Assembly: GCA_963697945.1 (NCBI GenBank) | Contig: OY969105.1 | Coordinates: 3,035,269 to 3,099,268 of the forward strand | Direction: 5' to 3' | Source: an uncultured Solirubrobacterales bacterium | GTDB lineage: Bacteria > Actinomycetota > Thermoleophilia > Solirubrobacterales > Solirubrobacteraceae | Length of the DNA: 64,000 nt | Shown: one piece after another, positions 3,023-59,687 of the stretch | Numbering within the stretch: position 1 is the stretch's first letter | Layout of the letters: every line of letters starts with the position of its first letter | The notes under the pieces: generated by a model | Told to the model about the DNA's origin: nothing | What the model saw: the letters and a program-made list of their open reading frames with translations, nothing else | The model's database searches: none | Translations under genes and position numbers: made by a program

Positions 3023-3081
3023 CAGTGCCGGCGATCGTCGGTGTCGCCGCGCACCGCCTTTCCGCGGATACGTAGATCGTC

Positions 3082-4185
3082 ATGAGCCTGCTCGACTATT
3101 ACCGCCAGTTCGAAGGGATGTCCGAGGAGGAGGTCAACGCGGAGCTACGCGAGGGGGCGGACGAGCGCAAACGCAAAGCGCTCATGCGCGTCGAGACGCT
3201 CGACCTCTCCCAAACGACGTGGCCCGAGCTGCCCCATCCGAGCATCGTCAGCGCGATCACGTTCGTGGCGCGCCGCGGCATGCAGCGCTACCCGCACCTG
3301 CGTGGCTCCCAGCTGCACGACGAGCTCGCCGAGCGCCACGGCGTGGACTCCGCCAGAGTGATCCTCGGCAACGGCGCCGCCGAGCTGCTGAGCTCCGCGA
3401 CACGCGCGCTGCTGGAGCCCGGACAGCGACTGCTGAGCGCGTGGCCTTCCTATCCCCTGTTTCCGATCATGGCCCGCCGCGCCCACGGGCAGGCGGTGCG
3501 TGTGTCCGGTGGCGTCGATGCCCTGCTGGAGGAGGCCCATCGCACGCCCGGCACGCGCGTGATCGCGATCGCCAGCCCGAACGACCCCACCGGCGAGCTG
3601 CTACCCAGGGCCGAACTCGAACGCCTCCTGGCGGGGCTCCCCGACGACGTGGCGGTGCTGCTGGACGAGTCGCTCGTGGAGTTCTCCGACGCCCAACCGG
3701 TCAACTCCTCGCTGCAGCTCGCGGCCGAGCATTCGCGGCTGTTCGTCGTGCGCAGCTTCTCCAAGGCCTGGGGCCTGGCGGGGCTGCGTGTGGGTTATGC
3801 GATCGGCGGGCCCGGATCGGAGGAGCTACTGGCGGAGCTGGCGCCCGACCTGGGCGTCTCGGAGGTCTCCCAGGCGGGCGCACTGGAAGCGCTTCGCGCG
3901 TGCTCGGAGATCGTCGACCGGCGCGTGAGCGCGATCGCGCGCGAGCGCACGGTCGTGACCGACGGCCTGCGTGAGCGCGGATTCGACGTTGCCGACAGCC
4001 AGGCGAACTTCGTCTGGGCGGCCCATCCGAGCGTCGATGGCGGCGAGCTCTCCGCACGGTTGTCCCGCGCCGGGATCCTCGTCGCCGGGGGCGCCGCCCT
4101 GGGCGAGCCCCGGCACGTGCGCATCGCGTTGCGCGACTCGCGCGCGAGCGAGCGTTTGCTTGAGGCGATCGACAAGTCGCTGTAG
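3082..4185 (+). CDS. PLP-dependent class I/II aminotransferase, histidinol-phosphate aminotransferase-like
   Basis: ILGNGAAELL, SPNDPTG, LLDE, PLP-lysine motif RSFSKAWGLAGLRVGY, SQANF. Confidence 0.88.
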   Translation: MSLLDYYRQFEGMSEEEVNAELREGADERKRKALMRVETLDLSQTTWPELPHPSIVSAITFVARRGMQRYPHLRGSQLHDELAERHGVDSARVILGNGAAELLSSATRALLEPGQRLLSAWPSYPLFPIMARRAHGQAVRVSGGVDALLEEAHRTPGTRVIAIASPNDPTGELLPRAELERLLAGLPDDVAVLLDESLVEFSDAQPVNSSLQLAAEHSRLFVVRSFSKAWGLAGLRVGYAIGGPGSEELLAELAPDLGVSEVSQAGALEALRACSEIVDRRVSAIARERTVVTDGLRERGFDVADSQANFVWAAHPSVDGGELSARLSRAGILVAGGAALGEPRHVRIALRDSRASERLLEAIDKSL

Positions 4186-4191
4186 GGCGTT

Positions 4192-4336
4192 CTGAGCGGT
4201 GCATGCACCGCTCAGCGGAGTCGTACATGTACGACTCCGTGACGAGCCGCATGCGGCTCGTCATCCGATGGGCGCATGCGCCCATCGGCGGGACCGCACA
4301 TGTGCGGTCCCGGGCAGGGCCGCATGCGGCCCTGCC
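4192..4336. repeat. Array 1 of six tandem 24-bp perfect palindromes centred on CATG
   Basis: Units 4192-4215, 4216-4239, 4240-4263, 4265-4288, 4289-4312, 4313-4336; each is a 10-bp arm + CATG + the exact reverse complement, checked base by base. Confidence 0.97.
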
Positions 4337-4344
4337 GTCCTTCC

Positions 4345-5670
4345 CTAGCCCGCGAGTCCCGACTGGCGCAGCAGCGCTCCGGTGGTGCCCTCGAGGATCT
4401 TCCGCCAGGCGCTCGCCTGCTCGGGCTCGACCTCGTCGAAGTGTTCCACGACCGCGCGCAGGCGCTCACCGGAGATGTTCAGCCCGTGGCGCTCGGCGAC
4501 CTCGCGGTAGTGCTCGTATTCGCCCGCCAGGTGCCGCGTGACCGACTGAAACCCGTGCTTGCCAATCTCAACGCGCGAGGCGAAGCTCATGATGGACGTC
4601 TGGAACATCAGCTTGTCAGCGGGCTCGGGCTCGATCAGGATGATGTCCACACCCGGATAGCGCTCGCCCCAGCGCTCGGCCAGCTCGTGCAGGCGCTGGT
4701 GGGCGAGCAGCTTGAACGCCTGATAGCCGATCTGCGGAAAGCCCATGTCCGAGACGCGCTTCGCGCGCACCCCGCCGAGCGTGCGGACGGTCTCCGAGAA
4801 GTCGTTCACGAACGGCACGATCGGGTTGATCACGACCACGAGCTTGGCCCCGGCTTCGACGGCGATGTCGAGGTTCGTGGTCGATACGAGCCCGCCGTCG
4901 ACCAGCTCGCGCTCGCCGACCGTCACCGGTGCGTACACCATCGGCAGCGCCCCCGAAGCTCGCACGGCAGTGGAGATCGGCACGCCCTGTAAACCGTTGT
5001 CGCGCCCGAACACCACCCGCTCGCACGTATCCAGATCGGTCGCCGTCAGGTACAGCTCGTGGCGTAGTTGGGTGAAGTCGTCGGTGCGCCCCGGCTCGCT
5101 CAGCACCTTGCGCAGGTACTCCTCGATTCCCTCGCCCGTGTACGCGCCCGAGGGCAGGCCCTCGGCGAAGCCCAACAGCACGTCCATCACCGACACCTGC
5201 CCGCGCTGGCGCACCACGTCGCGTGCCAACCCGAGCGCGCGCCACGGCAGCATCGCGCCCTTGCGCACGAGCTCGGTCAGGTTGGGGCGCAGCAGATCGC
5301 CGAGATCGATGTCCTCGAACGGCGATGGCGCCTGGTGGGTGACGACCTGCATCATCTCCTCGGGCGTCACCCCGTTCGCGCACAGCGCCGCGATGAACGA
5401 GCCGGCGGAGGTGCCGACGTAGATGTCGAACTGGTTCACCGTGCTGTTCGTCGCCAACAGGTCGAGCGCGCGCAGCGCACCGATCTCATAGACGCCACCG
5501 GTGAACCCTCCACCGCCGAGCACCAGCGCGGTCTTGTCGCTGCGCCGGCGCCGGCGTCGCCTGGTGGTGCTCGCCCCGATCGCCGCCCGGGCCGAGGATC
5601 GCGCGCGTGGACTGCTCGCGGAGCCGTTCGACCGCCCTGTTGCCGGTTCCAGCTTGACAACGCGTCCCAT
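4345..5670 (-). CDS. Patatin-like phospholipase
   Basis: LVLGGGGFTGG, GTSAG nucleophile elbow and DGG motif; start placed at ATG 5670 (MGRVVKLEP). Confidence 0.9.
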   Translation of the reverse strand: MGRVVKLEPATGRSNGSASSPRARSSARAAIGASTTRRRRRRRSDKTALVLGGGGFTGGVYEIGALRALDLLATNSTVNQFDIYVGTSAGSFIAALCANGVTPEEMMQVVTHQAPSPFEDIDLGDLLRPNLTELVRKGAMLPWRALGLARDVVRQRGQVSVMDVLLGFAEGLPSGAYTGEGIEEYLRKVLSEPGRTDDFTQLRHELYLTATDLDTCERVVFGRDNGLQGVPISTAVRASGALPMVYAPVTVGERELVDGGLVSTTNLDIAVEAGAKLVVVINPIVPFVNDFSETVRTLGGVRAKRVSDMGFPQIGYQAFKLLAHQRLHELAERWGERYPGVDIILIEPEPADKLMFQTSIMSFASRVEIGKHGFQSVTRHLAGEYEHYREVAERHGLNISGERLRAVVEHFDEVEPEQASAWRKILEGTTGALLRQSGLAG

Positions 5671-5694
5671 ACCACCCACCATCATATTCCCCGC

Positions 5695-6960
5695 GTGACT
5701 CGGAACCGGATTGCCCACACCCTGATCCTGCTCTGCGGGGCGCTCTCGACCCTCTGCGGCCTGCCCGCCGTGGCCGGTGCGGCGACGGTCAGCCTCGCCG
5801 GGTTGCAGGCCGATCTGACCCACCAGCTGGCCCTCGCCGGGCCCGCGGATGGGGCCTACGTGTATGACGTGAGCGCCCACCAGGCCCTCTTCTCCGAGCG
5901 CGCGACCACGCTACGCCCGCCCGCGTCGGTACAGAAGCTCTACACCGCCACGGCCCTGCTCGCGCGCATGGGGACGACCGGCCGGTTGAGTACGACCGTC
6001 TACGGAGTCGGGCGGCTCGCGCCTGGCGGGGTGTGGGAAGGCGACCTGTATCTGCGCGGCGGCGGCGACCCTACGTTCGGCTCCAGCGCGTTCATCCGCG
6101 CTCACTACGGCGGCATCGGCGCCTCTGTCTCGACGCTCGCCACACAGCTGGTCCACAGCGCGGGGATCCATCGCATCACCGGCCGAGTAGTGGGAGACGA
6201 GTCGTGGTTTGACTCGCTGCGCGGTGAGCCCTCAAGCAACTATGCGCCCGACCCGTTTCTCGAAGGCACGCTCTCGGGCTTGGCCTTCAATCGCGGCGCG
6301 AGCGGCTCCGAACGCGGCGCACACGCTCCCGCGGCGTTTGCGGCACGTGAGCTGTGGGCGAACTTGAAGAACGACGGCGTCGCGATCGCCGGTCACAGCG
6401 GCGCCGCGAGCATGCCTCCGGGGGCCACTCAGCTCGCGCGCGTCCAGTCGCCCACCGCCACCCAGCTGCTGGGCCTGACGCTGCCACCGTCGGACAATTT
6501 TTTCGCCGAGACGCTCGTCAAGGACCTCGGCGCGATGTACGCCGGCGCCGGCACCACCGCGGCCGGCGCGTCGGTCGTACGTCAGACGATCGCCTCGCTG
6601 CTCGGCATCCACCCGCACGTCGTGGACGGCTCGGGTCTCTCGGAATCCGATCTGACCTCGCCGTATGAGGTCACCGACCTGCTCGTCGAGCTGGCCTCGA
6701 CGCCGATCGGTCCGGTGTTGCGCGGCGATCTGGCGATCGCAGGACATACCGGGACGCTGGCCACGCGCATGCGCCATACCGGCGCCTCGGGGCGCTGTCA
6801 GGGCAAGACCGGCACGCTCACGGGCGTCTCCAACCTCGCCGGCTACTGCACCGCCGCAAACGGCCACACGCTTGCGTTCGCGCTCTTCACCGACGGGATC
6901 GCCACGGAAGCCGCGCACGTCTTCCAGGATCACATGGCGATCACGATCGCCGGTTACTAG
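5695..6960 (+). CDS. dacB: D-alanyl-D-alanine carboxypeptidase/endopeptidase (PBP4, peptidase S13)
   Basis: Signal peptide from GTG 5695; SxxK (PASVQKL), GDLYLRGGGDP, SDN, DGSGLS and KTG motifs. Confidence 0.9.
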   Translation: MTRNRIAHTLILLCGALSTLCGLPAVAGAATVSLAGLQADLTHQLALAGPADGAYVYDVSAHQALFSERATTLRPPASVQKLYTATALLARMGTTGRLSTTVYGVGRLAPGGVWEGDLYLRGGGDPTFGSSAFIRAHYGGIGASVSTLATQLVHSAGIHRITGRVVGDESWFDSLRGEPSSNYAPDPFLEGTLSGLAFNRGASGSERGAHAPAAFAARELWANLKNDGVAIAGHSGAASMPPGATQLARVQSPTATQLLGLTLPPSDNFFAETLVKDLGAMYAGAGTTAAGASVVRQTIASLLGIHPHVVDGSGLSESDLTSPYEVTDLLVELASTPIGPVLRGDLAIAGHTGTLATRMRHTGASGRCQGKTGTLTGVSNLAGYCTAANGHTLAFALFTDGIATEAAHVFQDHMAITIAGY

Positions 6961-7935
6961 AGGCTTGATGCGGGTTTATCGTCCGTCGTAGGCGGCGAGT
7001 GCTCGGGGTGGACGTCCGGCGAGGATGTTGATGTGCATTGCGAGGGTGAGGGCGAGGAGGCGTTGCGCGATGCGTTGTACGAGCCCTCCGAGTGTCTTGG
7101 CGAGGTGGTCTTCTAGGCGCATTTGGCGCTTGAGGTTGGAGAACACGCTCTCGATGACCAGGCGTACGCGTGCCTTGACGATCTCGCTGGCGGGGCGTGG
7201 ACCAGGACGGTGGCGCTCGGGCGTGATGAGTTGGACATTGATGAGTTCCATGCAATCTCGGTACTCCTTCCCCCAAAAGCCCTTATCGGCAAAGAGTGTG
7301 CTGCCGGAATGCGCGGCCGCCAACTCCAACGCACGTTCACGCTCTTGCCCGGTCTTGGGACCTGTGAGGTCATAACCGACGGGAACACCCTTTGCGTCGC
7401 TGATGAGCACAAGGCGCATTCCCCACACGAACAGGCTCTTGGATGGGCAGTAGCCGTAACTGGCATGCCCGGCGAACTCGCTGAACGATGCGCAGCCTGG
7501 ATAGTTGGCGCACGCGATCAGCGTTCCGTCGACCAGTCGCACCTGTCCATCGGCGATCAACTCGGCGACCATCATCTGCACCGTTGTGATCTGAGGTGTG
7601 AGCCGTCTAAGCCTGCGGTTGTACTGCGACTGGCCAGGTAACTCGGGGAAGAACCCGGGCAGCAACCGGCCGATCACACCCAAAAACTGGCGGTCTGAAC
7701 AGATCCCCGTCACCGCCTGGGCGACCCCCACCGCGATCAGCTCCTGATCTGTGACCTTGCCAGGTGGGCCCGGGCGAGGAATCGACAACGAGCAGGCGAA
7801 TACGTAGGCTGCAACAACGAGGGTCTCCAGCGAAGCGTCCATCTCGTGCTCCAATCACGAGTTGACAAGGGCTGGGGACCCTCTTCTCATCCCACCACCA
7901 CGATTCCTGCCCACCACCCAACCCGCATCAAGCCT
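6961..7935 (-). mobile_element. IS982-family insertion sequence, copy 1 (975 bp)
   Basis: Perfect 16-bp terminal IR AGGCTTGATGCGGGTT/AACCCGCATCAAGCCT; CTAG repeated on both flanks (6957-6960, 7936-7939); second copy at 52351-53325. Confidence 0.92.
6976..7842 (-). CDS. IS982-family DDE transposase
   Basis: KVTDQEL..FPELPGQSQYNRRLRRL N-terminus; DDE triad in VDGT, ADKGF, IESVFSNLK; GGAG RBS before ATG 7842. Confidence 0.88.
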   Translation of the reverse strand: MDASLETLVVAAYVFACSLSIPRPGPPGKVTDQELIAVGVAQAVTGICSDRQFLGVIGRLLPGFFPELPGQSQYNRRLRRLTPQITTVQMMVAELIADGQVRLVDGTLIACANYPGCASFSEFAGHASYGYCPSKSLFVWGMRLVLISDAKGVPVGYDLTGPKTGQERERALELAAAHSGSTLFADKGFWGKEYRDCMELINVQLITPERHRPGPRPASEIVKARVRLVIESVFSNLKRQMRLEDHLAKTLGGLVQRIAQRLLALTLAMHINILAGRPPRALAAYDGR

Positions 7936-9978
7936 CTAGAGGTCTCTGGCTTCAAGCAGCTCGCGCAACCCGTCCTCGTCGAGCACCGGCACCGCCAGGC
8001 GCTGGGCCTTGGCGAGCTTTGACCCGGCGGACTCGCCCGCGACGAGGTAGTCGGTGTTCTTCGACACCGACGCGGTGACGCGCCCGCCCGCGGCCATGAT
8101 CCGTTCGCTGGCCTGCTCGCGCGTCCAGTCCGGCAGGGTGCCGGTCAACACGAACGTCTTGCCCGCCAGCGGCCCCTCCGAGGGCGGCGGGCCCTGTTCG
8201 CGCAGCTGCAATCCGAGGCCGCGCAGGTCTGAGATCAGCGCGCGCATGCGCTCATCCTCGAGCTGGGCGCGGATCGTGCGCGCCATCTTCTCGCCGATGC
8301 CGGGGGTCTGGGAGATCTCCTCGGTGCTCGCCCCGAGCAGCGCGTCGATCGTGCGAAAGCGCATCGCGAGGTTGCGCGCGGTGATCTCGCCGACCTCCTC
8401 GATGCCGAGCCCAAAGAGCACGCGCGCGAACGGGCGCTGCTTTGAGGCCTCGATCGCGCCGATCAGGCTGCGTGCGGACTGCTCGGCGAAGCCCTCCAGC
8501 TCGATCAGCTGCTCGGCGGTCAGCCGGTAGAAGTCCGCGTCGGTACGCACCAGCCCGCGCTCCTGCAGCAGCGCGACCTGCTTCTCGCCCAGGCCCTCGA
8601 TGTCCATCGCGCCCTGGGAGACGAAGTGCTTGAGCAACTGCCATGCCCGTGCCGGACAATCGCGGTTGGGGCACTGCGTGAACACGCCCTCGCGCGGCTT
8701 GACCGTTTTGGTGTTGCAAAACGGGCACCTGGAAGGGGCGCGCGGACGCGGCGGACGCTTGCCGGAGCGGTCGAGCACGTGCGGCGCGGGCGAGACCACC
8801 TGCGGGATCACATCGCCCGCGCGCATCACGATCACCTCCTCGCCCGGACGCAGGTCCTTGCGGCGCAGATCCTCCTCGTTGTGGAGCGTCGCCAACTTGA
8901 TCGTCACCCCTCCGACCGCGACGGGTGTGAGCATGGCGTAGGGGCGCAAATCGCCGAACTTGCCGACGTTCCACATGACCTTCTCCAGGGTGGTCACGGC
9001 GGTGGTGGGCGGGAACTTCCAGGCGATCGCCCAGCGCGGATCGCGCCCGACCGAACCCAGGCGGCGCTGCAGCTGCAGATCGTCGACCTTCACCACCACC
9101 CCGTCGATCTCAAAGTCAAGCTCGCCGCGGCGGCGCTGCCAGTCAAGGCACTGTTCGATCACCTCCTCCTCGCTGTCCAGCACCTGAATGTCGGGGTTCA
9201 CACGGAAGCGATGCTCGCGCAACCACTCAAGCGCCTGGGAGTGGCGTTTGAGCTCGAAGGACAGCCCCTCAACGACACCCAGCTGGTAGCACCACATCGA
9301 CAACGGCCGCTCGCGCGCATCCGCGGGATCGAGTTGGCGGATCGTGCCGGCGGCGGAGTTGCGCGGGTTCATGAACGTCGGCTCTCCGGCCTGGGCGCGG
9401 CGCTCGTTGAGCGCGGCGAAGTCGGCCAGCGACATATACACCTCGCCGCGCACCTCCAAGAGTGGCGGCACATCCTCGACGCGCAGCGGGATCGAGCCGA
9501 TCGTGCGCAGGTTATGCGTGACGTCCTCCCCCACCTCGCCGTTACCGCGCGTGGCCCCGCGCTCGAGCACCCCTTCGCGATAGACGAGGCTCATCGCAAG
9601 CCCGTCGATCTTCGGCTCGACCACGAAACGAAAGCGCGGCTGCGCGATGCCCTCGCGCGCGAGATGGGTGCGCATCCGCTCGACCCACGCACGCAGCTCC
9701 TCCTCGGTACGAGCGTTCGGCAGCGAGAGCATCGGCTCCAGGTGCGTGACCTTCTCGAGCTTCCCCACCGGCTCCCCGCCCACGCGCTGGGTGGGCGAGT
9801 CGGGCGTACGCAGCTGGGGGTGGGTGGCCTCGATCGCGCGCAACTCGTCCAGCAGCGCGTCATAGACGTCATCGCCGATCTCCGGATCGTCGAGGACGTA
9901 ATAGCGATAGGCGTGATGTTCGAGCTGCGTGCGTAGCTCCCCCGCGCGAGCCCAAATCTCCTTTCCGGGTTCGCTCAC
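7936..9978 (-). CDS. ligA: NAD-dependent DNA ligase
   Basis: YYVLDDP, KIDGLA adenylation motif, DGVVVK, CPFC...CPNRDC zinc finger, HhH repeats, BRCT (TFVLTGTL). Confidence 0.97.
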   Translation of the reverse strand: MSEPGKEIWARAGELRTQLEHHAYRYYVLDDPEIGDDVYDALLDELRAIEATHPQLRTPDSPTQRVGGEPVGKLEKVTHLEPMLSLPNARTEEELRAWVERMRTHLAREGIAQPRFRFVVEPKIDGLAMSLVYREGVLERGATRGNGEVGEDVTHNLRTIGSIPLRVEDVPPLLEVRGEVYMSLADFAALNERRAQAGEPTFMNPRNSAAGTIRQLDPADARERPLSMWCYQLGVVEGLSFELKRHSQALEWLREHRFRVNPDIQVLDSEEEVIEQCLDWQRRRGELDFEIDGVVVKVDDLQLQRRLGSVGRDPRWAIAWKFPPTTAVTTLEKVMWNVGKFGDLRPYAMLTPVAVGGVTIKLATLHNEEDLRRKDLRPGEEVIVMRAGDVIPQVVSPAPHVLDRSGKRPPRPRAPSRCPFCNTKTVKPREGVFTQCPNRDCPARAWQLLKHFVSQGAMDIEGLGEKQVALLQERGLVRTDADFYRLTAEQLIELEGFAEQSARSLIGAIEASKQRPFARVLFGLGIEEVGEITARNLAMRFRTIDALLGASTEEISQTPGIGEKMARTIRAQLEDERMRALISDLRGLGLQLREQGPPPSEGPLAGKTFVLTGTLPDWTREQASERIMAAGGRVTASVSKNTDYLVAGESAGSKLAKAQRLAVPVLDEDGLRELLEARDL

Positions 9979-12080: not shown

Positions 12081-13070
12081 TTAGTCCTGACGGAGATTCA
12101 GGCCCCGTGCGTGGAGCGTCTCGATGACCTCGTCGATCGACTTTTTGCCGAAGTTCGGGATCGCGTTGAGCTCGGCCTCGGACTTCGAGATGAGATCTCC
12201 GACGGTCTGGATGCCTGCGCGCTTGAGGCAGTTGTAGGAGCGCACACCGAGCTCGAGCTCCTCGATCAAGATGCCCCACTCCTCGCCCTGCAGGGCGCCC
12301 GCAGTCCCGCCGCCACCCGCGCCGCCCGGGACCGCGAGACCGTGACCGTCGAGCTGTCCGCCAGGAGCGGCACGAAGCTCTTGGATGCGGTCGGCATCGG
12401 TGAAGATCGCCAGCTGCGAGATCAACAGCTCGGCGGCCTCGCGCAGCGCGGCCTGAGGATCGATCGAGCCGTCTGTCTCGATGTCCAGGGTGAGCTTGTC
12501 GAAGTCGGTCTTCTGACCGACACGGGCCTGCTCGACGGCATAGGCGACACGACGCACGGGCGAGAAGATCGAGTCGATCGGGATCACACCGATGGGCTGG
12601 TCGGGCGACTTGTTCTCCTCGGCGGGGCGATATCCGCGGCCGCGACCGATCGTCATGTATAGCTCGAGCTTTGTCTTCTTCTCAAGCGTCGCGACGTGCA
12701 CGTCCGGGTTGAGGATCTCCACGCCGGCGGGCAAGTCGATGTCCTTGGCCGTGATTTCCCCCGGGCCGGTCACGACCAGCGGCGCCTCGACCTCGGTCGC
12801 GTCTGAGTGCATGCGGCAGACGATGCCCTTGAGGTTGAGCACGATGTCGGTCACGTCTTCCTTGACGCCCGGGATCGTCGAGAACTCGTGCGCGACTCCC
12901 TCGATGCGCACACTCGTGACGGCGGCGCCCGCGAGCGATGAGAGCAGCACGCGCCGCAGCGAGTTGCCGAACGTGTAGCCGAAACCGCGGTCGAGCGGCT
13001 CGATGGTGAACGTGCCGCGGTTCTGCTCCACGGACTCGCTTGTGATCCGGGGGATTTGGAAGTCGAGCAT
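12081..13070 (-). CDS. rpoA: RNA polymerase alpha subunit
   Basis: EPLDRGFGYTFGNSLRRVLLSSL; alpha-CTD ELELGVRSYNCLKRAGI; start placed at ATG 13070. Confidence 0.97.
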   Translation of the reverse strand: MLDFQIPRITSESVEQNRGTFTIEPLDRGFGYTFGNSLRRVLLSSLAGAAVTSVRIEGVAHEFSTIPGVKEDVTDIVLNLKGIVCRMHSDATEVEAPLVVTGPGEITAKDIDLPAGVEILNPDVHVATLEKKTKLELYMTIGRGRGYRPAEENKSPDQPIGVIPIDSIFSPVRRVAYAVEQARVGQKTDFDKLTLDIETDGSIDPQAALREAAELLISQLAIFTDADRIQELRAAPGGQLDGHGLAVPGGAGGGGTAGALQGEEWGILIEELELGVRSYNCLKRAGIQTVGDLISKSEAELNAIPNFGKKSIDEVIETLHARGLNLRQD

Positions 13071-32517: not shown

Positions 32518-33123
32518 TCAGGCGGTCTTTGCGTTTGCGTCCGTCGCCGGATCGGGGCAGGACCCGCTGCTGGGAGCGTCTTCGAACACCACGCTGAGGC
32601 GCTCCAGCACGCGGGTGGCGACGCGTAGCTCCTCCGGCTCAACGCCCTGTAGCGCAGCCTGCCAGCCTCCCTGCCAGGCGGCGCGCTTGGCCTCGATCTT
32701 GCCTCTGCCCTGCACCGTCAGACGGGAGACCACCACGCGGCGGTCGGTCTCAGAGCGAGCGCGCTCGACGTGACCGCAGTCCGCGAGATGCTCGAGCATC
32801 TGCGTGACGGTGGCTGGGGTCAGCCGCGCCGCTGCGGCGAGCTCCCCTGCCGGCAGCTCACCGCGCTCGTACAGCTCGATCAGCAGCTCGAACTGGGCAT
32901 GGCTGATCTCCGAGCCCCCGAGATGGGTGTCGCGACCGCGCAGGCGATTGAGACTGCGAAACACCCGGCGAAAGGCCTTACCGAGCCCGTCCAGCTCGGC
33001 GCTCCACTCCGGCGCCGGGTAAGCGAGCGCCGATCCCACCGCTCCCGAGTCCGAGGACCCGGGTGAGGAGGCCGGATCGGGGTCCGCCGGTTGGATGGAG
33101 GGTGTGGCCGCGGTTGGGCTCAT
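32518..33123 (-). CDS. MarR-family transcriptional regulator
   Basis: [36 protein letters not shown]. Confidence 0.9.
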
Positions 33124-33136
33124 GCCGCTGTCCCCA

Positions 33137-34627
33137 CTACGCCCCGAGCGGCTCGACCGCGGCCTCAGCGCCGGCGGCCTCGCGCGTGAGCTTCGCGCGC
33201 GGATTCTCGGCCCGTGCCAGCACCAGACACGGGATCAGCGACAGCAGCGCGATTGCCAGGGCCCACCAGTAGGCCGAGTTGAACGCGCTCGCGAGCTGCG
33301 CCGGCGTGGACGCGTGGGCGCCGGCGCGTTGCAGCACGACCGCGAGCACCGCCACTCCGATCGCCCCGCCGACACGCTGGAGCATGTTCAGCTGCGGCGT
33401 CGCGTCGGAGAGCTCCTCCGGTCGCAGTGCCGTGAACGCGGCGGTCATCGCGGGCATGAACGACAGCCCGATGCCCACGCCGCGCACGGCCAGCACGAGT
33501 GAAATCGCGACGATCGAGGTGTTCGCTCCGATCAGCACGAACGGGACCGTGCTCAGACACAGGATCGAGACGCCGACGATCGCCACGCGACCGCCCCCGA
33601 AGCGTTCGGTGAGGCGTCCGTTGAGCGGTCCGACGAGCAGCATCCCCAGCCCTTGCGGGCCGACGAGCAGGCCCGTGACGATGATGCTCTCGCCGCGCAC
33701 CTCCTGGTAGTAGAGCGGGATCAAAATCATCGCGCCGAACAGCGAGGCGCCCAGCCCGAACGTCGTCAGCGAGGCCGCCCCGAAGACGCGGTTCTTATAC
33801 AGACGGATGTCAAGCAGCGGACGCTCGACCCGCAGCGCGTGCCAACCGAACGCAAGCGTCAGCGCGACCCCGACCAGCAGCGGCCAGATCACGCTCGGGG
33901 CGGTGAGGCTGGCGTTCGTGCCGAGCTCCGACAGGCCATACACGACCGCGGTGGCGCCCGTCGAGATCAGTGCCAGGCCGAGCACGTCCAGCTGTCCGGC
34001 CTCGCCGGACTCGGTCTTCGGCAGCATCCGCCAGCCGAGCACGAACGCGACCACGCCGATCGGGACGTTGACGAGGAAGATCCACGACCAGTGCAGCTCC
34101 TGCAGGATCACGCCCCCGACCACCGGCCCGAGGATCGGTGCGAGCATCGCGGGCATCACCACGACGCCCATCACGCGACCCATCCGCTTGGGGCCCGCGA
34201 CCTGGGCCATGATCAGCTGAGCGATCGGCATGATCATCCCGCCGCCGGCTCCCTGCAGCACGCGAAAGAACACGAGCGTCGTCAGCGAGCCGGCCACCGC
34301 GCACAGTCCCGAGCCGGCCGTGAACAGCACCAGCGAGACCAGATACACGCGCTTGGCCCCGAACCGCCGTGCCGCCCATCCAGTCACCGGGATGACCGCC
34401 GCCAGCGCGAGCAGATAGCCGGTTACGACCCACTGCACTTGGGAGATCGAGCTGTGCAGATCGTGCCCGAGCGTGTGCAGCGCGACGTTCACGATGGTCG
34501 TGTCGAGGATCGACATGATCATCCCCAGGATCACCACGCCGGCGATCTTCCAGACGTAGGGCTCGATGTGATCTGAGGCCTCCGGGTGAAAGCCCGGATC
34601 GGCTGCGGTTGTCGGAGAGGAAGACAT
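33137..34627 (-). CDS. DHA2 (EmrB/QacA-type) MFS efflux transporter
   Basis: LDTTIVNVAL, QWVVTGYLLA, RRFGAKR, RVLQGAGGG, GPVVGG; about 14 TM. Confidence 0.92.
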   Translation of the reverse strand: MSSSPTTAADPGFHPEASDHIEPYVWKIAGVVILGMIMSILDTTIVNVALHTLGHDLHSSISQVQWVVTGYLLALAAVIPVTGWAARRFGAKRVYLVSLVLFTAGSGLCAVAGSLTTLVFFRVLQGAGGGMIMPIAQLIMAQVAGPKRMGRVMGVVVMPAMLAPILGPVVGGVILQELHWSWIFLVNVPIGVVAFVLGWRMLPKTESGEAGQLDVLGLALISTGATAVVYGLSELGTNASLTAPSVIWPLLVGVALTLAFGWHALRVERPLLDIRLYKNRVFGAASLTTFGLGASLFGAMILIPLYYQEVRGESIIVTGLLVGPQGLGMLLVGPLNGRLTERFGGGRVAIVGVSILCLSTVPFVLIGANTSIVAISLVLAVRGVGIGLSFMPAMTAAFTALRPEELSDATPQLNMLQRVGGAIGVAVLAVVLQRAGAHASTPAQLASAFNSAYWWALAIALLSLIPCLVLARAENPRAKLTREAAGAEAAVEPLGA

Positions 34628-34667
34628 TTGGTACCGAAAGTTTAGGTACCAAACCTTATTTCTTCAA
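34627..34667 (-). promoter_or_regulatory. Promoter TTGAAG-17-TAAACT overlapped by a 27-bp inverted repeat (probable MarR operator)
   Basis: -35 at 34662-34667 and -10 at 34639-34644 on the minus strand; palindrome TTTGGTACC-GAAAGTTTA-GGTACCAAA at 34627-34653. Confidence 0.75.
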
Positions 34668-34686
34668 CCCCGCCGAGGATGTTGTT

Positions 34687-34832
34687 CTGCTCGGCGCATG
34701 CGCCGAGCAGCGGGGGCGCGCATGCGCGCCCCCGAACGGGCCGCACATGTGCGGCCCGGGCGTCGCCACATGTGGCGACGCCTTGCGGGCGGTGCATGCA
34801 CCGCCCGCCGACCCCGCGCATGCGCGGGGTCG
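34687..34832. repeat. Array 2 of six tandem CATG-centred perfect palindromes
   Basis: Units 34687-34710, 34711-34734, 34737-34758 (22 bp), 34759-34782, 34785-34808, 34809-34832. Confidence 0.97.
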
Positions 34833-49334: not shown

Positions 49335-49384
49335 ATCGAACGCCTAGGTTAGCTGCGATTGACTGGGATTGTCTTCTTGATGTC

Positions 49385-49528
49385 GCCCACGGCGCGTGCG
49401 CCGTGGGCCGCAGGCGCGCATGCGCGCCTGCGTGGGAGCCGCACATGTGCGGCTCCACCGGCGGCGCATGCGCCGCCGGCCAGACGGGCGCATGCGCCCG
49501 TCTGCGGGTCGGTACATGTACCGACCCG
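49385..49528. repeat. Array 3 of six tandem CATG-centred palindromes
   Basis: Units 49385-49408 (core CGTG), 49409-49432, 49435-49456 (22 bp), 49458-49479 (22 bp), 49481-49504, 49505-49528. Confidence 0.97.
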
Positions 49529-49531
49529 GTC

Positions 49532-50056
49532 CTAAATCTTTTTTACCTGATCAAAACCCACCTCTACGGGGGTCTCGCGGCCGAAGATTGATACCAGGAC
49601 CTTCAACTTGGCCGCGTCCTCGTTGATCTCCGAGATCTCCCCCGAGAAGTCCGAGAGCGGTCCGGAGACCACCTTGACGGACTCGCCGATCTGAAACTGC
49701 GCGCGCGTGCGCGGCGCCGTGGCGACGTCGGTCTTGTGCAACAGCCGATCGACCTCGACCTGGGTCAGCGGCACGGGCTCCTGGGAGGCGCCGACGAAGC
49801 CGGTCACGCCGGGGGTGCCCTTGACGACGCCCCAGGAGTCCTCGTTGAGCTCCATGTTCACGAGCACATAGCCGGGCATCGTGCGCTTCTCCACGGTGAC
49901 CTTCTGGTTGTCCTTCATCTCCGAGACGGACTCGGTCGGGACGACCACGTTGCGCACGGCGCGCTGCTGGCCGAGCGAGATCACGCGATGCTCGAGGTTC
50001 TGTTTGACCTTGTTCTCGTGGCCTGAATAAGTGTTGACGACGTACCAGCGAAACAT
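49532..50056 (-). CDS. nusG: Transcription termination/antitermination factor NusG
   Basis: WYVVNTYSGHENKV, PGYVLVNM, KOW GESVKVVSGP, VSIFGRETPVE. Confidence 0.98.
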   Translation of the reverse strand: MFRWYVVNTYSGHENKVKQNLEHRVISLGQQRAVRNVVVPTESVSEMKDNQKVTVEKRTMPGYVLVNMELNEDSWGVVKGTPGVTGFVGASQEPVPLTQVEVDRLLHKTDVATAPRTRAQFQIGESVKVVSGPLSDFSGEISEINEDAAKLKVLVSIFGRETPVEVGFDQVKKI

Positions 50057-50724: not shown

Positions 50725-50889
50725 CTAACGAGTCTCCCGATGACCGGTATGACGCCGGCACCAGCGGCAGTACTTGCGCAGGGATATCCGATCGGGGTTG
50801 TTGCGCTTGCTCTTGTTCGTCTGGTAGTTGCGATGCTTGCACTCCTCGCATGCGAGGGTGATAGCGATGCGAACGTCTCCGCGGGCCAT
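50725..50889 (-). CDS. rpmG: 50S ribosomal protein L33 (zinc-binding form); not in ORF track
   Basis: Manual translation [54 protein letters not shown]. Confidence 0.97.
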
Positions 50890-52247: not shown

Positions 52248-52350
52248 CTAGACGGCCGGGAGGCAAGAGAGGCAAGAACGCAGGAGGCGAGGCGTACTAC
52301 GTACGCGAGCCGACGAGGACGCAGCATCTCGCCGCCTCCCGACCGTCTAG
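52248..52350 (+). repeat. Structured ~104-bp dispersed element, copy D
   Basis: 17-bp outer stem CTAGACGGCCGGGAGGC/GCCTCCCGACCGTCTAG (1 mismatch), apical GCGTAC-TAC-GTACGC, GAGGACGCAG. Confidence 0.8.
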
Positions 52351-53325
52351 AGGCTTGATGCGGGTTTATCGTCCGTCGTAGGCGGCGAGTGCTCGGGGTG
52401 GACGTCCGGCGAGGATGTTGATGTGCATTGCGAGGGTGAGGGCGAGGAGGCGTTGCGCGATGCGTTGTACGAGCCCTCCGAGTGTCTTGGCGAGGTGGTC
52501 TTCTAGGCGCATTTGGCGCTTGAGGTTGGAGAACACGCTCTCGATGACCAGGCGTACGCGTGCCTTGACGATCTCGCTGGCGGGGCGTGGACCAGGACGG
52601 TGGCGCTCGGGCGTGATGAGTTGGACATTGATGAGTTCCATGCAATCTCGGTACTCCTTCCCCCAAAAGCCCTTATCGGCAAAGAGTGTGCTGCCGGAAT
52701 GCGCGGCCGCCAACTCCAACGCACGTTCACGCTCTTGCCCGGTCTTGGGACCTGTGAGGTCATAACCGACGGGAACACCCTTTGCGTCGCTGATGAGCAC
52801 AAGGCGCATTCCCCACACGAACAGGCTCTTGGATGGGCAGTAGCCGTAACTGGCATGCCCGGCGAACTCGCTGAACGATGCGCAGCCTGGATAGTTGGCG
52901 CACGCGATCAGCGTTCCGTCGACCAGTCGCACCTGTCCATCGGCGATCAACTCGGCGACCATCATCTGCACCGTTGTGATCTGAGGTGTGAGCCGTCTAA
53001 GCCTGCGGTTGTACTGCGACTGGCCAGGTAACTCGGGGAAGAACCCGGGCAGCAACCGGCCGATCACACCCAAAAACTGGCGGTCTGAACAGATCCCCGT
53101 CACCGCCTGGGCGACCCCCACCGCGATCAGCTCCTGATCTGTGACCTTGCCAGGTGGGCCCGGGCGAGGAATCGACAACGAGCAGGCGAATACGTAGGCT
53201 GCAACAACGAGGGTCTCCAGCGAAGCGTCCATCTCGTGCTCCAATCACGAGTTGACAAGGGCTGGGGACCCTCTTCTCATCCCACCACCACGATTCCTGC
53301 CCACCACCCAACCCGCATCAAGCCT
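52351..53325 (-). mobile_element. IS982-family insertion sequence, copy 2 (975 bp)
   Basis: Same IRs, length and ORF translations as copy 1; CTAG at 52347-52350 and 53326-53329. Confidence 0.92.
52366..53232 (-). CDS. IS982-family DDE transposase
   Basis: Translation identical to the copy 1 transposase. Confidence 0.88.
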   Translation of the reverse strand: MDASLETLVVAAYVFACSLSIPRPGPPGKVTDQELIAVGVAQAVTGICSDRQFLGVIGRLLPGFFPELPGQSQYNRRLRRLTPQITTVQMMVAELIADGQVRLVDGTLIACANYPGCASFSEFAGHASYGYCPSKSLFVWGMRLVLISDAKGVPVGYDLTGPKTGQERERALELAAAHSGSTLFADKGFWGKEYRDCMELINVQLITPERHRPGPRPASEIVKARVRLVIESVFSNLKRQMRLEDHLAKTLGGLVQRIAQRLLALTLAMHINILAGRPPRALAAYDGR

Positions 53326-53907
53326 CTAGTGGCTCTCGAGGACCCGGTCGATCAAGCCGTACTCCTGCGCCTGCTCGGCCGTGAAGAAACGGTCGCGCTC
53401 CATATCCCTGCGCACCTGCTCGGTCGGGCGGCCGGTGTGTTCGGCGTAGATTTCGTCCAGGCGGCCCCTGACGGCGAGGATCTCGCGGGCGTGGATCTCG
53501 ATGTCGGTCGACTGGCCTTCGAACCCGGCCGAGGGCTGATGGATGAGGATGCGGCTGTTCGGCAACGCCGCGCGCTTGCCCTTCGTTCCTCCGGCCAGCA
53601 GCAACGAGCCCATCGACATCGCCACGCCCACGCACATCGTCGCGATGTCCGGCTTGACGAAGCGCATCGTGTCGTAGATCGCCAGCCCCGAATAGACCGA
53701 GCCGCCGGGGGAGTTGATGTAGATCGAGATGTCCTTCTCGGGGTCCTCCGACTCCAGATGCAGCAACTGAGCGACCACCAGGTTGGCGACCTGATCGTCG
53801 ATCGGGGTGCCGAGGAAGATGATGCGCTCGTTAAGCAAGCGCGAATAGATGTCGAACTCGCGCTCGCCCCGGGCGGTGCGCTCTATGACCATCGGAATCA
53901 GAGGCAT
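53326..53907 (-). CDS. clpP: ATP-dependent Clp protease proteolytic subunit
   Basis: [25 protein letters not shown]; catalytic Ser (AMSMG), His (IHQP), Asp (ERDRF). Confidence 0.97.
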
Positions 53908-55779: not shown

Positions 55780-56337
55780 ATGGCAATTGCAGTGTTCCCG
55801 CTGAACCTCCCGAACATGCTCACGGTGCTGCGCATCATGCTGGTGCCGGTGCTGGTGGTGGCGCTGCTCGGCAACACCCAAGAGGGGGACGTGCTCGCCG
55901 CGATCGTGTTCGCGCTCGCTTCGGCGACCGACTTCGTCGACGGCTATCTCGCGCGCTCGCGCCACAGCGTGACGACGTTCGGTAAGCTGATGGACCCGCT
56001 CGCGGACAAGCTCCTGATCGTCGCCGCGCTGATCGCGCTCGTGTCGCTGAACCGGCTGGAAGCGTGGGTGGCGATGGTGATCATCACCCGCGAGCTCGCC
56101 GTCACGGTGCTCAGGCTCGGTGCGACCCAGGCCGGGGTCGTGATGGCCGCGAGCATGCTGGGCAAGATCAAGACCTGCATGCAGATCGCGTTGATCCTCG
56201 CGCTGATCGCCGTGCACGGACAGCCGCTGTGGCTCTCGCTGCTGCTGTACGCGACCGTGCTCGTGACGATCGTCTCGGGGCTGGACTTCTTCTTTGGACT
56301 GCGCCGGCGCCTGGCGCGCGCTCAGACCGACGGCTGA
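55780..56337 (+). CDS. pgsA: CDP-diacylglycerol--glycerol-3-phosphate 3-phosphatidyltransferase
   Basis: [40 protein letters not shown]; the true start may be GTG 55792. Confidence 0.93.
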
Positions 56338-56494
56338 GCCTTCTGGCTGCCCCGGCGCCCCGGCGCGCGTTTCAGACCGACGGCTGAGCCTTCTTCGGGC
56401 TGCCCCGGCGCCCGGCGCGCGTTTCAGACCGACGGCTGAGCCTTCTTCGGGCTGCCCCGGCGCCCCGGCGCGCGTTTCAGACCGACGGCTGAGC
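56286..56494. repeat. Tandem repeat, four copies of a 50-53-bp unit
   Basis: TCAGACCGACGGCTGAGC recurs at 56322, 56372, 56424 and 56477 with near-identical linkers. Confidence 0.9.
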
Positions 56495-59126: not shown

Positions 59127-59146
59127 GGAACGAGTTCCGTCCTGTC

Positions 59147-59162
59147 ACGAACGTATGTTCGT
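59147..59162. promoter_or_regulatory. LexA (SOS) box
   Basis: ACGAAC-GTAT-GTTCGT matches the Gram-positive/actinobacterial CGAAC-N4-GTTCG consensus; 3 nt before ATG 59166. Confidence 0.8.
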
Positions 59163-59165
59163 GTC

Positions 59166-59585
59166 ATGCAACCGCTCTCAACCCGCCGCCAGGGGGACAT
59201 TGGCGAGCTTTCCGCGATGGATTGGCTTAGTCAGCAGGGATACGGTATTTATATCCCGGTCGGTCACAGTCCCAACTGTGACGTGGTTGCCGATGCAGGC
59301 GATGCGCTTCTGCGCATTCAAGTCAAGACCTCAACGGTCTATCGGAAGTGTCGCTGGGAGGTCACCGTCTGCACCAAGGGGGGCAACAGAAGCTGGAATG
59401 GGCTAGTCAAGCGCCTCGACACATCACACATCGACTACTTGTTTGTTCTCGTTGCCGACGGTCGCCGCTGGTTCATACCTTCCTTCGCCATCGGCGGCGG
59501 CAGCGGCATTCTCCTGGGCGGTCCCAAGTACGCCGACTACGAAGTCGATCCAGGGCGACCGTTGCCATCGCAAGCGACAAGCTGA
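59166..59585 (+). CDS. PD-(D/E)XK endonuclease, I-Ssp6803I/PDDEXK_5-like
   Basis: QGDIGEL helix, P..HSPNCD, LRIQVKT, IDYLFV; acidic/QxK residues D11, E14, D39, Q52, K54. Confidence 0.82.
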   Translation: MQPLSTRRQGDIGELSAMDWLSQQGYGIYIPVGHSPNCDVVADAGDALLRIQVKTSTVYRKCRWEVTVCTKGGNRSWNGLVKRLDTSHIDYLFVLVADGRRWFIPSFAIGGGSGILLGGPKYADYEVDPGRPLPSQATS

Positions 59586-59605
59586 TCGCTATCCTCGTCC
59601 ACCCC

Positions 59606-59687
59606 GGCGGGGTTCCCGAGCGGTCAAAGGGACGAGACTGTAAATCTCGCGGCTCAGCCTTCGCAGGTTCGAATCCTGCCCCCGCCA
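59606..59687 (+). tRNA. tRNA-Tyr(GTA), CCA not encoded
   Basis: Acceptor GGCGGGG/CCCCGCC + A73; anticodon arm CGAGA-CTGTAAA-TCTCG; long variable arm; GCAGG-TTCGAAT-CCTGC T arm. Confidence 0.97.

Follow-up and report, generated by a model that had tools for sequence, protein, structure and literature searches.

Three blocks of abutting palindromes, each of six units, lie between genes in a 64,000-nucleotide stretch of DNA from an uncultured Solirubrobacterales bacterium (contig OY969105.1, positions 3,035,269 to 3,099,268; hereafter the window). These arrays belong, with very little room for doubt, to a real family of extragenic repeats that extends across the Solirubrobacterales and is apparently undescribed. 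What sets the family apart is that its 24-bp units are perfect and abutting, are unlike each other in sequence and change in a mirrored manner as they evolve. The symmetry of the units is probably kept by copying of one arm from the other (template switching) rather than by stepwise compensatory selection. A role of the arrays as orientation-independent hairpin barriers at transcript ends, comparable to that of repetitive extragenic palindromes (REPs) and bacterial interspersed mosaic elements (BIMEs), is a more tentative proposal that we hold to be possible rather than probable. The account as a whole, with the family, the arm copying and the transcript-end role taken together, has in our view an even chance of being right.

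Palindrome arrays in the window and across the Solirubrobacterales

The arrays were delimited by direct reading and by an exhaustive palindrome scan that covered every dyad centre of the window, which has a G+C content of 67%.

Array 1: 4192-4336, 145 bp; six abutting 24-bp perfect palindromes, all CATG-centred
Array 1 units: 4192-4215, 4216-4239, 4240-4263, T linker at 4264, 4265-4288, 4289-4312, 4313-4336
Array 2: 34687-34832, 146 bp; five 24-bp units and one 22-bp unit
Array 2 units: 34687-34710, 34711-34734, 34737-34758 (22 bp), 34759-34782, 34785-34808, 34809-34832
Array 3: 49385-49528, 144 bp; three perfect 24-bp units, two 22-bp units and a CGTG-centred unit 1
Array 3 units: 49385-49408 (CGTG centre), 49409-49432, 49435-49456 (22 bp), 49458-49479 (22 bp), 49481-49504, 49505-49528

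Together, the arrays hold 15 units of 24 bp and three of 22 bp. The core RCATGY (R, purine; Y, pyrimidine) is found in 17 of the 18 units. CATG is the centre of 17, and the first unit of array 3 (49385-49408) has 10-bp arms that are fully complementary around CGTG. An earlier sequence-only reading of the window had given the array coordinates, the arms, the unit sizes and the distances of 6 and 8 nt from array 1 to the adjoining stop codons, and every one of these numbers was reproduced. Outside the arrays, the 64-kb window contains just four perfect palindromes of at least 16 bp, each exactly 16 bp long. A pattern of four RCATGY motifs at approximately 24-bp spacing, which is blind to arm complementarity, matched the three arrays only, with 0.00 matches expected (100 shuffles). 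The three arrays are not attributable to chance. Their unit types follow one another in a common polar order, which supports the earlier proposal that they are homologous blocks, and the window contains no near-identical array copies. The arrays are also, as had been stated, neither a simple tandem repeat nor CRISPR, as the units differ and there are no spacers. Two solitary, imperfect CATG-centred quasi-palindromes, CGTCTGAGTGCATGCGGCAGACG at 12799-12822 and CACTCCTCGCATGCGAGGGTG at 50840-50862, may be decayed or nascent single units.

The same spacing-only pattern, with at least four units required, was run against 185,579 species genomes (one per bacterial or archaeal species) and matched at least 119 loci, labelled L001-L119. 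Among these matches are about 80 true arrays in about 68 genomes, so that similar arrays do occur elsewhere in the lineage. True arrays among the matches listed are all from Solirubrobacterales/Solirubrobacteraceae, save one from a genome labelled just Actinomycetota, and matches listed from other taxa all lack palindromes. Up to four arrays were found per metagenome-assembled genome (MAG) among the matches listed. Across the ribosomal-protein and rpoBC region, the window shares 92-94% identity with a Solirubrobacteraceae MAG, and it is present in public soil metagenome runs, where Logan contigs of independent soil runs cover array 1. Many further contigs in these soil runs hold similar CATG-centred palindromes, and the architecture was seen in four separate runs.

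Assemblers can create or collapse palindromes and the window is metagenome-derived, which would speak for an artefact of assembly or polishing. The array-bearing genomes come from several independent projects and from both long- and short-read data, including Nanopore-based closed chromosomes and MAGs assembled with MEGAHIT and SPAdes. Array-bearing closed chromosomes of Solirubrobacterales include OY970221.1, OY970062.1, OY969898.1, OY970204.1, OY970161.1 and OY970308.1, and the MAGs with homologous arrays derive from Nanopore as well as Illumina data. The architecture also recurs in the Logan contigs, orthologous copies sit at identical gene junctions, and no pattern matches are expected by chance. 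The independent contigs, the genome scan and the orthologous arrays refute an origin by artefact or chance, to which we assign virtually no probability.

Searches of other collections returned nothing comparable. The pattern matched 109 times in IMG/VR viral contigs, none of them a palindrome array, as the matches were period-24 tandem or coding repeats, and blastn against PLSDB plasmids and GenBank phages gave no match to the arrays. In Rfam, the whole window yields a single tRNA at the gathering score, and a permissive search with array 1 gives sub-threshold matches to multi-hairpin small RNAs only, the best of which scores 30 bits against a cut-off of 52. The literature that we searched contains no report of such arrays in Solirubrobacterales or Thermoleophilia, and the surveys of REPs are silent on them. 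The sequence-only reading had recognised no described element with this architecture, and neither Rfam nor the REP surveys contain a catalogued match.

The anatomy of the family was derived from 82 arrays (window and loci) with 393 units among the matches listed. Arrays are 70-190 bp long and contain three to eight units: four in 36 arrays, five in 24, six in 18 and seven or eight in three. The rule of "always six units" proposed from the window thus describes its three arrays and not the family. The inner arms are perfect in 383 of the 393 units, and only 10 of 3,537 arm pairs are mismatched (0.28%), with no excess of G:T among the ten. The consensus of the unit centre is YRCATGYR, an alternating pyrimidine-purine octamer, with C at 84% and G at 73% at the flanking positions. 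The next two positions outward are G or C, and the outer six vary freely but are GC-rich. The palindromes have a half-length of 12 in 74% of units and of 11 in 16%. Terminal units have no neighbour to constrain their outer side, yet just 3.7% of them exceed a half-length of 12. Linkers are 0 nt in 54% of cases, 1 nt in 24% (mostly A or T) and otherwise 2 nt, and the outermost bases of the 22-bp units show no convincing pattern. About 61 of the approximately 70 units that the scan pattern did not force to CATG have this centre nonetheless (about 87%); the exceptional centres are the self-complementary TATA and ATAT and the one-base variants CGTG (twice), CACG, CTTG and CAAG.

The arrays have a polarity. 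In 44 of the 82 there is a TT/AA at one end, with the consensus (A/G)TGNTGTT, and from this TGTT end the consensus order of units is CCGGnCGGCG first, CGGGGCCGCG second and so on to GnCnnnGCCG last. Some units recur: 26 units lie within one mismatch of the last unit of array 1, in which GGCAGGGCCG precedes CATG, and they are found in non-orthologous arrays of many species. Two units of one array disagree, on average, at 5.6 of the 10 arm positions. We rejected the idea that arrays grow by duplicating units in tandem: adjacent units differ at 5.6 positions compared with 5.5 for random pairs, and near-identical pairs are, if anything, less frequent among neighbours (8 of 311) than among random pairs (5%). 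Beside the array in L049, at approximately 4566-4605, there is a short tandem repeat of TCTAGCG-like heptamers.

The sequence-only reading had also listed a CATG-methylation-sensitive element among the possible roles. We found no sign of CATG being avoided as a target of restriction or methylation: in the window outside the arrays, RCATGY accounts for 23% of CATG sites compared with 25% expected, which makes a restriction system aimed at RCATGY unlikely. Outside the arrays, both RCATGY and YRCATGYR occur at the expected frequency and without palindromic context.

Mirrored change between orthologous arrays

Orthologous arrays reveal how the units diverge. Array 3 and its counterpart in L016 (3473-3616) differ by four mirrored arm changes, no unmirrored ones, one centre change and two linker changes. 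Their flanks are 92-94% identical, third-codon-position divergence in nusG, rplK and rplA is 13-19%, and arm divergence per pair is 7%. The counterpart of array 2 in L085 has five units (one is missing), and 11 of 50 arm positions have changed, all of them in a mirrored fashion; here, the flanks are 86% identical, third-position divergence is 25-35% and arm divergence per pair is 22%. Across seven independent orthologous species pairs with 32 unit pairs, all 51 arm differences are mirrored, which substantiates the mirrored divergence between copies that the sequence-only reading had suggested. These 51 differences consist of 28 transitions and 23 transversions (45%), and 40 of them lie in the outer six positions.

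The pairing of the arms is strict throughout the family. In 150 distinct units, 98.1% of cells are paired, compared with 55% after shuffling and 34-48% when the partners are slid against each other, and each of the ten pairs shows all four Watson-Crick types. Within the inner nine pairs of these units, G:U accounts for just two cells out of 1,349. Arm pairs diverge at approximately 0.4-0.8 of the third-codon-position rate, and mismatched intermediates make up approximately 0.3% of pairs. Asymmetric changes are concentrated in the central 4 nt and are much less frequent in the arms; they comprise the one-base centre variants among the approximately 70 unforced units.

Under the compensatory-neutral model, double changes that pass through a deleterious intermediate become fixed at about 2u/s of the neutral rate. 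As this is orders of magnitude below the observed rate, ordinary compensatory selection is unable to give the pattern. The variant of the model with neutral intermediates also fails, since it would make mismatches common and mismatches are rare. The missing wobble pairs, the share of transversions and the fast divergence without intermediates all argue against compensatory selection on an RNA stem. The sequence-only reading had weighed selection on hairpins against a fold-back copying mechanism, and on these same three grounds the copying fits better than base-by-base selection.

We therefore favour arm-to-arm copying as the source of the symmetry. In this mechanism, one arm would template the other across the 4-nt loop, by intra-strand template switching at the hairpin during replication. 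A change in a single arm would quickly be erased or mirrored, so that the pair would evolve at approximately the rate of a single site and would rarely be caught unpaired. The central CATG would form the loop and be left uncopied, which is why asymmetric changes would be expected to concentrate in the central 4 nt. Replication template switching at quasipalindromes is known to copy one arm from the other and to perfect inverted repeats (PMC7202029). Others have proposed that it preserves the perfection of inverted repeats in bacteria (PMC5941160) and that it both generates and maintains stems (PMC8794818). Inverted repeats maintained in this way share with our arrays the multi-base "compensatory" changes, the strict Watson-Crick pairing and the uncopied loop. 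As judged from the sequences, the 51 of 51 mirrored differences with their 23 transversions, the two G:U cells in 1,349 and the asymmetry found mainly in the central 4 nt would all be signs of this process. It is, however, a mutational mechanism that has been described for scattered single repeats and for rRNA stems, not for a family of phased arrays, and it predicts neither a fixed CATG centre nor a 24-bp unit nor the array architecture.

In addition to mirrored substitutions, larger changes were observed. The arrays of L046 and L111 differ by three units. Between L052 and L114, whose flanks are 95-96% identical, one unit has been replaced, one has been added and there is an 85-nt insertion that bears a flank module (described below). 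In L073 (6417-6539) and L115 (4217-4313), the array and its TGTT flank lie in opposite orientations at the same gene junction, either because the array was inverted as a whole or because it was inserted independently. The interval that separates the stop codon of a sigma-factor-like gene from a tRNA (59606-59687 in the window) contains a five-unit array in L051 (2634-2840), whereas in the window it is filled by approximately 480 bp of sequence that is unrelated and includes a small ORF (open reading frame; 59127-59605). At another orthologous site, L070 has a five-unit array starting with CCGGTCGGCG, whereas L044 has an ordinary hairpin, CGGTCGG-N10-CCGACCG. In a soil strain from run X2, represented by a 2,352-bp contig, array 1 shows no differences in 145 positions while its flanks differ by approximately 11%. 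Several junctions are shared between genomes: nusG and rplK, rpsG and the next gene, and the position downstream of ftsZ in L040, L046 and L111. Arrays thus persist at orthologous sites for long periods while gaining, losing, replacing and even inverting units. Their evolution looks episodic, with the X2 array unchanged and those of L052 and L114 changed faster than their flanks.

This unevenness tells against arm copying as a complete explanation. The X2 array is unchanged despite the divergence of its flanks, and units were replaced and added in L052/L114 despite flanks that are nearly identical. With rates this uneven, some of the "mirrored substitutions" are possibly replacements of whole units from other arrays. 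Such replacement is also a form of copying and would likewise keep the units perfect. The identical recurrent units are hard to reconcile with near-neutral drift of the arms unless they are copied between arrays. Template switching further leaves unexplained the YR/YR shoulders of the centre, the self-complementary nature of the exceptional centres TATA and ATAT, the position-specific unit types, the recurrence of units and the flank module.

Position at gene ends and possible role

Arrays are associated with the ends of genes. A conservative coding test placed a coding stop within 20 nt of 32 of the 82 arrays and within 150 nt of 50; arrays usually start between a few and approximately 60 nt from a stop codon, and seven lie between convergent stops. 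The stop codon next to an array is TAG in 58% of cases; among the remaining genes of these loci the share is 33% (Fisher p = 5e-4). TAGGG/CCCTA or TAGTT flanks are common beside arrays. Array polarity has no relation to the direction of the adjacent gene (8 versus 11). In the window, array 1 fills the whole gap between a convergent pair of aminotransferase-like and patatin-like ORFs and is bordered as follows.

4183-4185, + strand: TAG stop of the aminotransferase-like ORF (3082-4185), 6 nt upstream of the start of array 1
4189-4191, + strand: GTT flank, which marks the "first-unit" end of the family polarity at array 1
4345-4347, - strand: stop codon of the convergent patatin-like ORF (4345-5880), 8 nt past the end of array 1

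The corresponding polarity flank is TGTTGTT at 34680-34686 in array 2 and TAGTT at the nusG end of the array 3 ortholog in L016. Array 2 has the rpsG stop (34988, minus strand) on one side and the start of a major facilitator superfamily (MFS) transporter gene (34627) on the other, and array 3 lies 3 nt past the nusG stop (49532-49534, minus strand), upstream of rplK. Two of the three window arrays, those that follow rpsG and nusG, are found where highly expressed operons end. In metatranscriptome contigs of other relatives (run X22), only 5-14 nt separate the nusG stop from the rplK start, which indicates that the 203-nt spacer with array 3 (49335-49537) is a lineage-specific addition. An exact-protein look-up of an array-neighbouring gene returned no record.

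As RNA, array 1 is predicted to fold into six 10-bp hairpins with 4-nt loops (-124.7 kcal/mol, z = -10.4), and the predicted fold reaches approximately -125 kcal/mol with a z of about -10 on either strand. Single units are predicted to form DNA hairpins of -10 to -13 kcal/mol. The adjacency to stop codons, these stable predicted hairpins, the persistence at junctions, the ordinary hairpin in place of an array in L044 and the scarcity of canonical terminators suggest a role similar to that of REPs and BIMEs. Canonical hairpin-plus-T terminators are not enriched in the region of the window, where five were found compared with 8.9 expected. In E. coli, REPs close to a stop codon interfere with terminating ribosomes. 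In the proposed role, an array would make up the 3' end of the upstream gene's transcript, as a block of four to eight very stable 10-bp hairpins. This block would hinder read-through and 3' exonucleases in either orientation, and when near a stop codon it would brake terminating ribosomes. Both the independence of polarity from gene direction and the in-situ inversion in L073/L115 fit a role that is free of orientation. Protection of 3' ends and a barrier to read-through are among the reported roles of REPs (PMC2817692, PMC3116915, PMC3733652).

Several observations count against such a hairpin role. TTTT is found within 12 nt of only 1 of the 82 arrays. In the absence of T-runs, the arrays are not canonical intrinsic terminators, with which they share the (predicted) hairpins. 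Metatranscriptome contigs gave only conserved coding parts of other taxa and did not cover this organism. In addition, a hairpin role gives no reason for a CATG loop, for units of exactly 24 bp or for rare centres (TATA and ATAT) that are themselves self-complementary. Hairpin-only ("I-shaped") terminators have been reported in Actinobacteria, where GC-rich stem-loops without a U-tract lie directly 3' of genes. These are single, imperfect and unrelated in sequence, whereas the arrays consist of four to eight hairpins with a shared centre, a fixed length and perfect arms.

The arrays could also act purely at the level of RNA, as multi-hairpin terminators or stabilisers in the 3' untranslated region that evolve under ordinary purifying and compensatory selection, with no copying step in the DNA. 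Arrays directly past stop codons, very stable predicted hairpins, overwhelming covariation and the full conservation of X2 array 1 between flanks that differ by approximately 11% would all be expected from such an element. Nevertheless, RNA stems tolerate G:U well, and G:U is nearly absent; 45% of the mirrored changes are transversions, for which there is no wobble route; and arm divergence is of the same order as third-position divergence without intermediates, which is incompatible with the compensatory-neutral model. Moreover, array polarity does not follow the direction of transcription, inverted arrays occur, a role of the stem alone does not need a conserved self-complementary loop, and arrays lack a U-tract. 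We consider a purely RNA-level explanation very improbable.

The self-complementary centre raises a further alternative, namely that the arrays function as double-stranded DNA. They could be sites for a dimeric protein that reads YRCATGYR, or buffers of supercoiling or marks at gene ends that are prone to form cruciforms or Z-DNA, by analogy with the binding of gyrase and of integration host factor at BIMEs; arm symmetry would then be needed for extrusion. The centre is an 8-bp alternating pyrimidine-purine tract, and sequences of the d(CGCATGCG) type are Z-prone. Units are perfect through the centre, including the self-complementary rare ones, pairing is strictly Watson-Crick, arrays are independent of orientation, unit length is sharply defined, and two of the window arrays end highly expressed operons. 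However, the outer arms have no conserved sequence, so that a protein would read the 8-bp centre at most. RCATGY and YRCATGYR are neither rarer nor more frequent than expected elsewhere and stand there without palindromes, the 24-bp period leaves sites out of helical phase, and no candidate protein was identified. In addition, the convergent genes around array 1 would be expected under the twin-domain model to generate positive supercoiling, which disfavours cruciforms and Z-DNA. A double-stranded-DNA element is accordingly quite improbable, and we retain the transcript-end barrier as the working proposal for function.

Possible mobility, a possible partner and relation to known elements

The fixed centre, the exact length, the unit types, their recurrence and the flank module suggest sequence-specific recognition or copying between arrays. 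This suggests an additional trans-acting, sequence-specific partner or constraint, which would be comparable to the REP-associated tyrosine transposases (RAYTs) of REPs. We clustered 513 ORFs from 80 array loci and found housekeeping families only, with nothing recurrent or transposase-like within approximately 4 kb of the arrays. The sequence-only reading had called the arrays a candidate new repeat system. They do form an unusual new REP/BIME-like family, but the machinery of their own that "system" implies finds no support in a partner gene within approximately 4 kb. A dedicated DNA-level system would involve an enzyme that recognises the 24-bp hairpin or cruciform with its YRCATGYR tip. 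Fold-back synthesis would make and repair units, giving exact symmetry and exact length, and the enzyme would add, replace and invert them. The arrays would in that case be self-symmetrising elements of a new kind, and not passengers of the REP type whose symmetry ordinary replication errors maintain. We regard such a system as unlikely.

The module mentioned above, CGCATGC-TT(W)n-AAAGCTGATG with an A/T-rich stretch of 2-10 nt, is found beside approximately one in six arrays and at either end (L084, L099, L004, L002, L005, L040, L061, L077, L083, L097, L114, L297 and L324). It starts with what resembles the left half of a unit. In L084 it is present in inverted form, ...AAAGCTGATGNTGT, at both ends of the array (3027-3047 and 3253-3273), and L015 and L010 show a weaker version of this arrangement. 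The module stands at a single end in approximately ten further arrays and is absent from most, including all three window arrays. It does not form a stable hairpin. In the genome loci and in the metagenome scan, it was never seen away from arrays. A metagenome scan for an autonomous element, with the module as bait, gave 120 matches, of which 118 were chance matches in coding sequence and two were true, both beside arrays.

These features bear on the possibility that the arrays are non-autonomous mobile elements, in which an enzyme acting in trans would recognise the YRCATGYR hairpin and copy arrays or units between sites. The enzyme could be a HUH transposase of REP/RAYT-like or IS200/IS605-like type or another structure-specific nuclease. 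On this view, the symmetry would follow incidentally from a single-stranded hairpin intermediate, and a function for the host would be secondary or absent. Mobility would account for presence and absence at orthologous sites (L051 versus the window at 59.1 kb, and L070 versus L044), for the replacement and addition of units between genomes with 95% identical flanks and for identical units in unrelated arrays and species. The conserved centre and 24-bp length, the in-situ inversion and the module, which is found only with arrays and resembles the termini of miniature inverted-repeat transposable elements (MITEs) where it is inverted at both ends of L084, also fit, and the TAG enrichment could mean a target preference. 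On the other hand, the survey of neighbouring ORFs uncovered no transposase-like or recurrent non-syntenic gene within approximately 4 kb of 80 arrays. The empty orthologous sites that the sequence-only reading had pointed to as informative were recorded in these two comparisons, with no target-site duplication visible in either, both sites being diverged. The window has no near-identical array copies, its three arrays sharing unit types only; several arrays are stably orthologous across species; and the module never flanks a gene or stands apart from an array. Mobility is therefore a fairly unlikely explanation of the arrays as a whole, and arm-to-arm copying remains our preferred account of their symmetry.

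Among known repeats, the arrays are most readily compared with the REPs and BIMEs of Enterobacteria, Pseudomonas and Stenotrophomonas (PMC2817692, PMC3116915, PMC3733652). Like these, they are short, GC-rich extragenic palindromes that are clustered, lineage-specific and present in many copies. Both are found mostly at the 3' ends of genes and between convergent or co-directional genes, both should be able to adopt stable RNA or single-stranded DNA hairpins, and in both, unit number varies between strains and orthologous sites show presence and absence. The 18 units in three intergenic arrays within 64 kb are short, extragenic, repeated palindromes in the sense used for REPs. Unlike REPs, the units are perfect through the centre (383 of 393), and a unit therefore has no orientation. 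The tag defined for REPs (PMC3733652) is essentially absent, with GTAG at two and CGTC at two of 383 unit ends. REPs of one family share their whole sequence, whereas the arrays conserve only the 8-bp centre and have different unit types at different positions. The units abut (0-2 nt), whereas a BIME consists of imperfect, oriented units in alternating orientation with defined spacers. No RAYT was found within approximately 4 kb of 80 arrays, and the host belongs to an actinomycete order outside the coverage of the REP surveys. As the arrays resemble REPs and BIMEs in position, size, palindromy, clustering and lineage restriction but lack three of their defining features, we class them as an apparently undescribed family of extragenic palindromic repeats.

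MITEs and palindromic elements derived from IS200/IS605 are likewise small, non-coding, hairpin-rich and variably present, and a minority of arrays (L084, L015, L010) have inverted terminal modules. In contrast to MITEs, the arrays show no target-site duplication (two comparisons at diverged sites), most lack a terminal module, and their interior consists of abutting perfect palindromes. No parent insertion sequence with matching ends was found, the ends of the insertion sequence in the window being unrelated. CRISPR arrays have a similarly regular period of a few tens of bp and partly palindromic repeats. In our arrays, there are no spacers, the units are mutually different, no leader or cas genes were seen and the length is only 70-190 bp.

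Solirubrobacterales are among the commonest soil actinomycetes but have barely been cultured, and we know of no non-coding repeat family described from them. The arrays provide a clean marker of the lineage, and gene callers as well as CRISPR and terminator finders will mis-handle such features. With hundreds of perfect palindromes that evolve independently, arm-to-arm copying can be measured against ordinary substitution, which bears on the old problem of how stems stay paired while their sequence drifts. In a phylum with few canonical terminators, the arrays also offer a test bed for the action of REP-like elements at the ends of genes. If the CATG centre and the length of 24 bp owe their constancy to a dedicated enzyme, the arrays would represent a new class of DNA element that is self-symmetrising.

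Other features of the window were noted in the course of the analysis. Near array 2, an operator-like perfect inverted repeat, GGTACCGAAAGTTTAGGTACC (34630-34650), lies just 5' of the MFS-transporter gene (33137-34627, minus strand). It is identical base for base in L085, while the spacer around it has diverged. The transporter gene is followed by a MarR-like ORF (32518-33123), and this MarR/MFS pair is inserted between rpsG and fusA. An insertion sequence of approximately 991 bp is present in two copies that are 99.8% identical (6957-7947 and 52347-53337). It carries an ORF for a 292-amino-acid DDE transposase (6976-7854, minus strand in copy 1), and its termini are the inverted repeats GAGGCTTGATGCGGGTT with CTAG flanks. 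Copy 2 is absent from the orthologous locus L016, which indicates a recent insertion. Self-comparison of the window also revealed a tandem repeat of approximately 50 bp at 56289-56494, in three copies with 91-92% identity.

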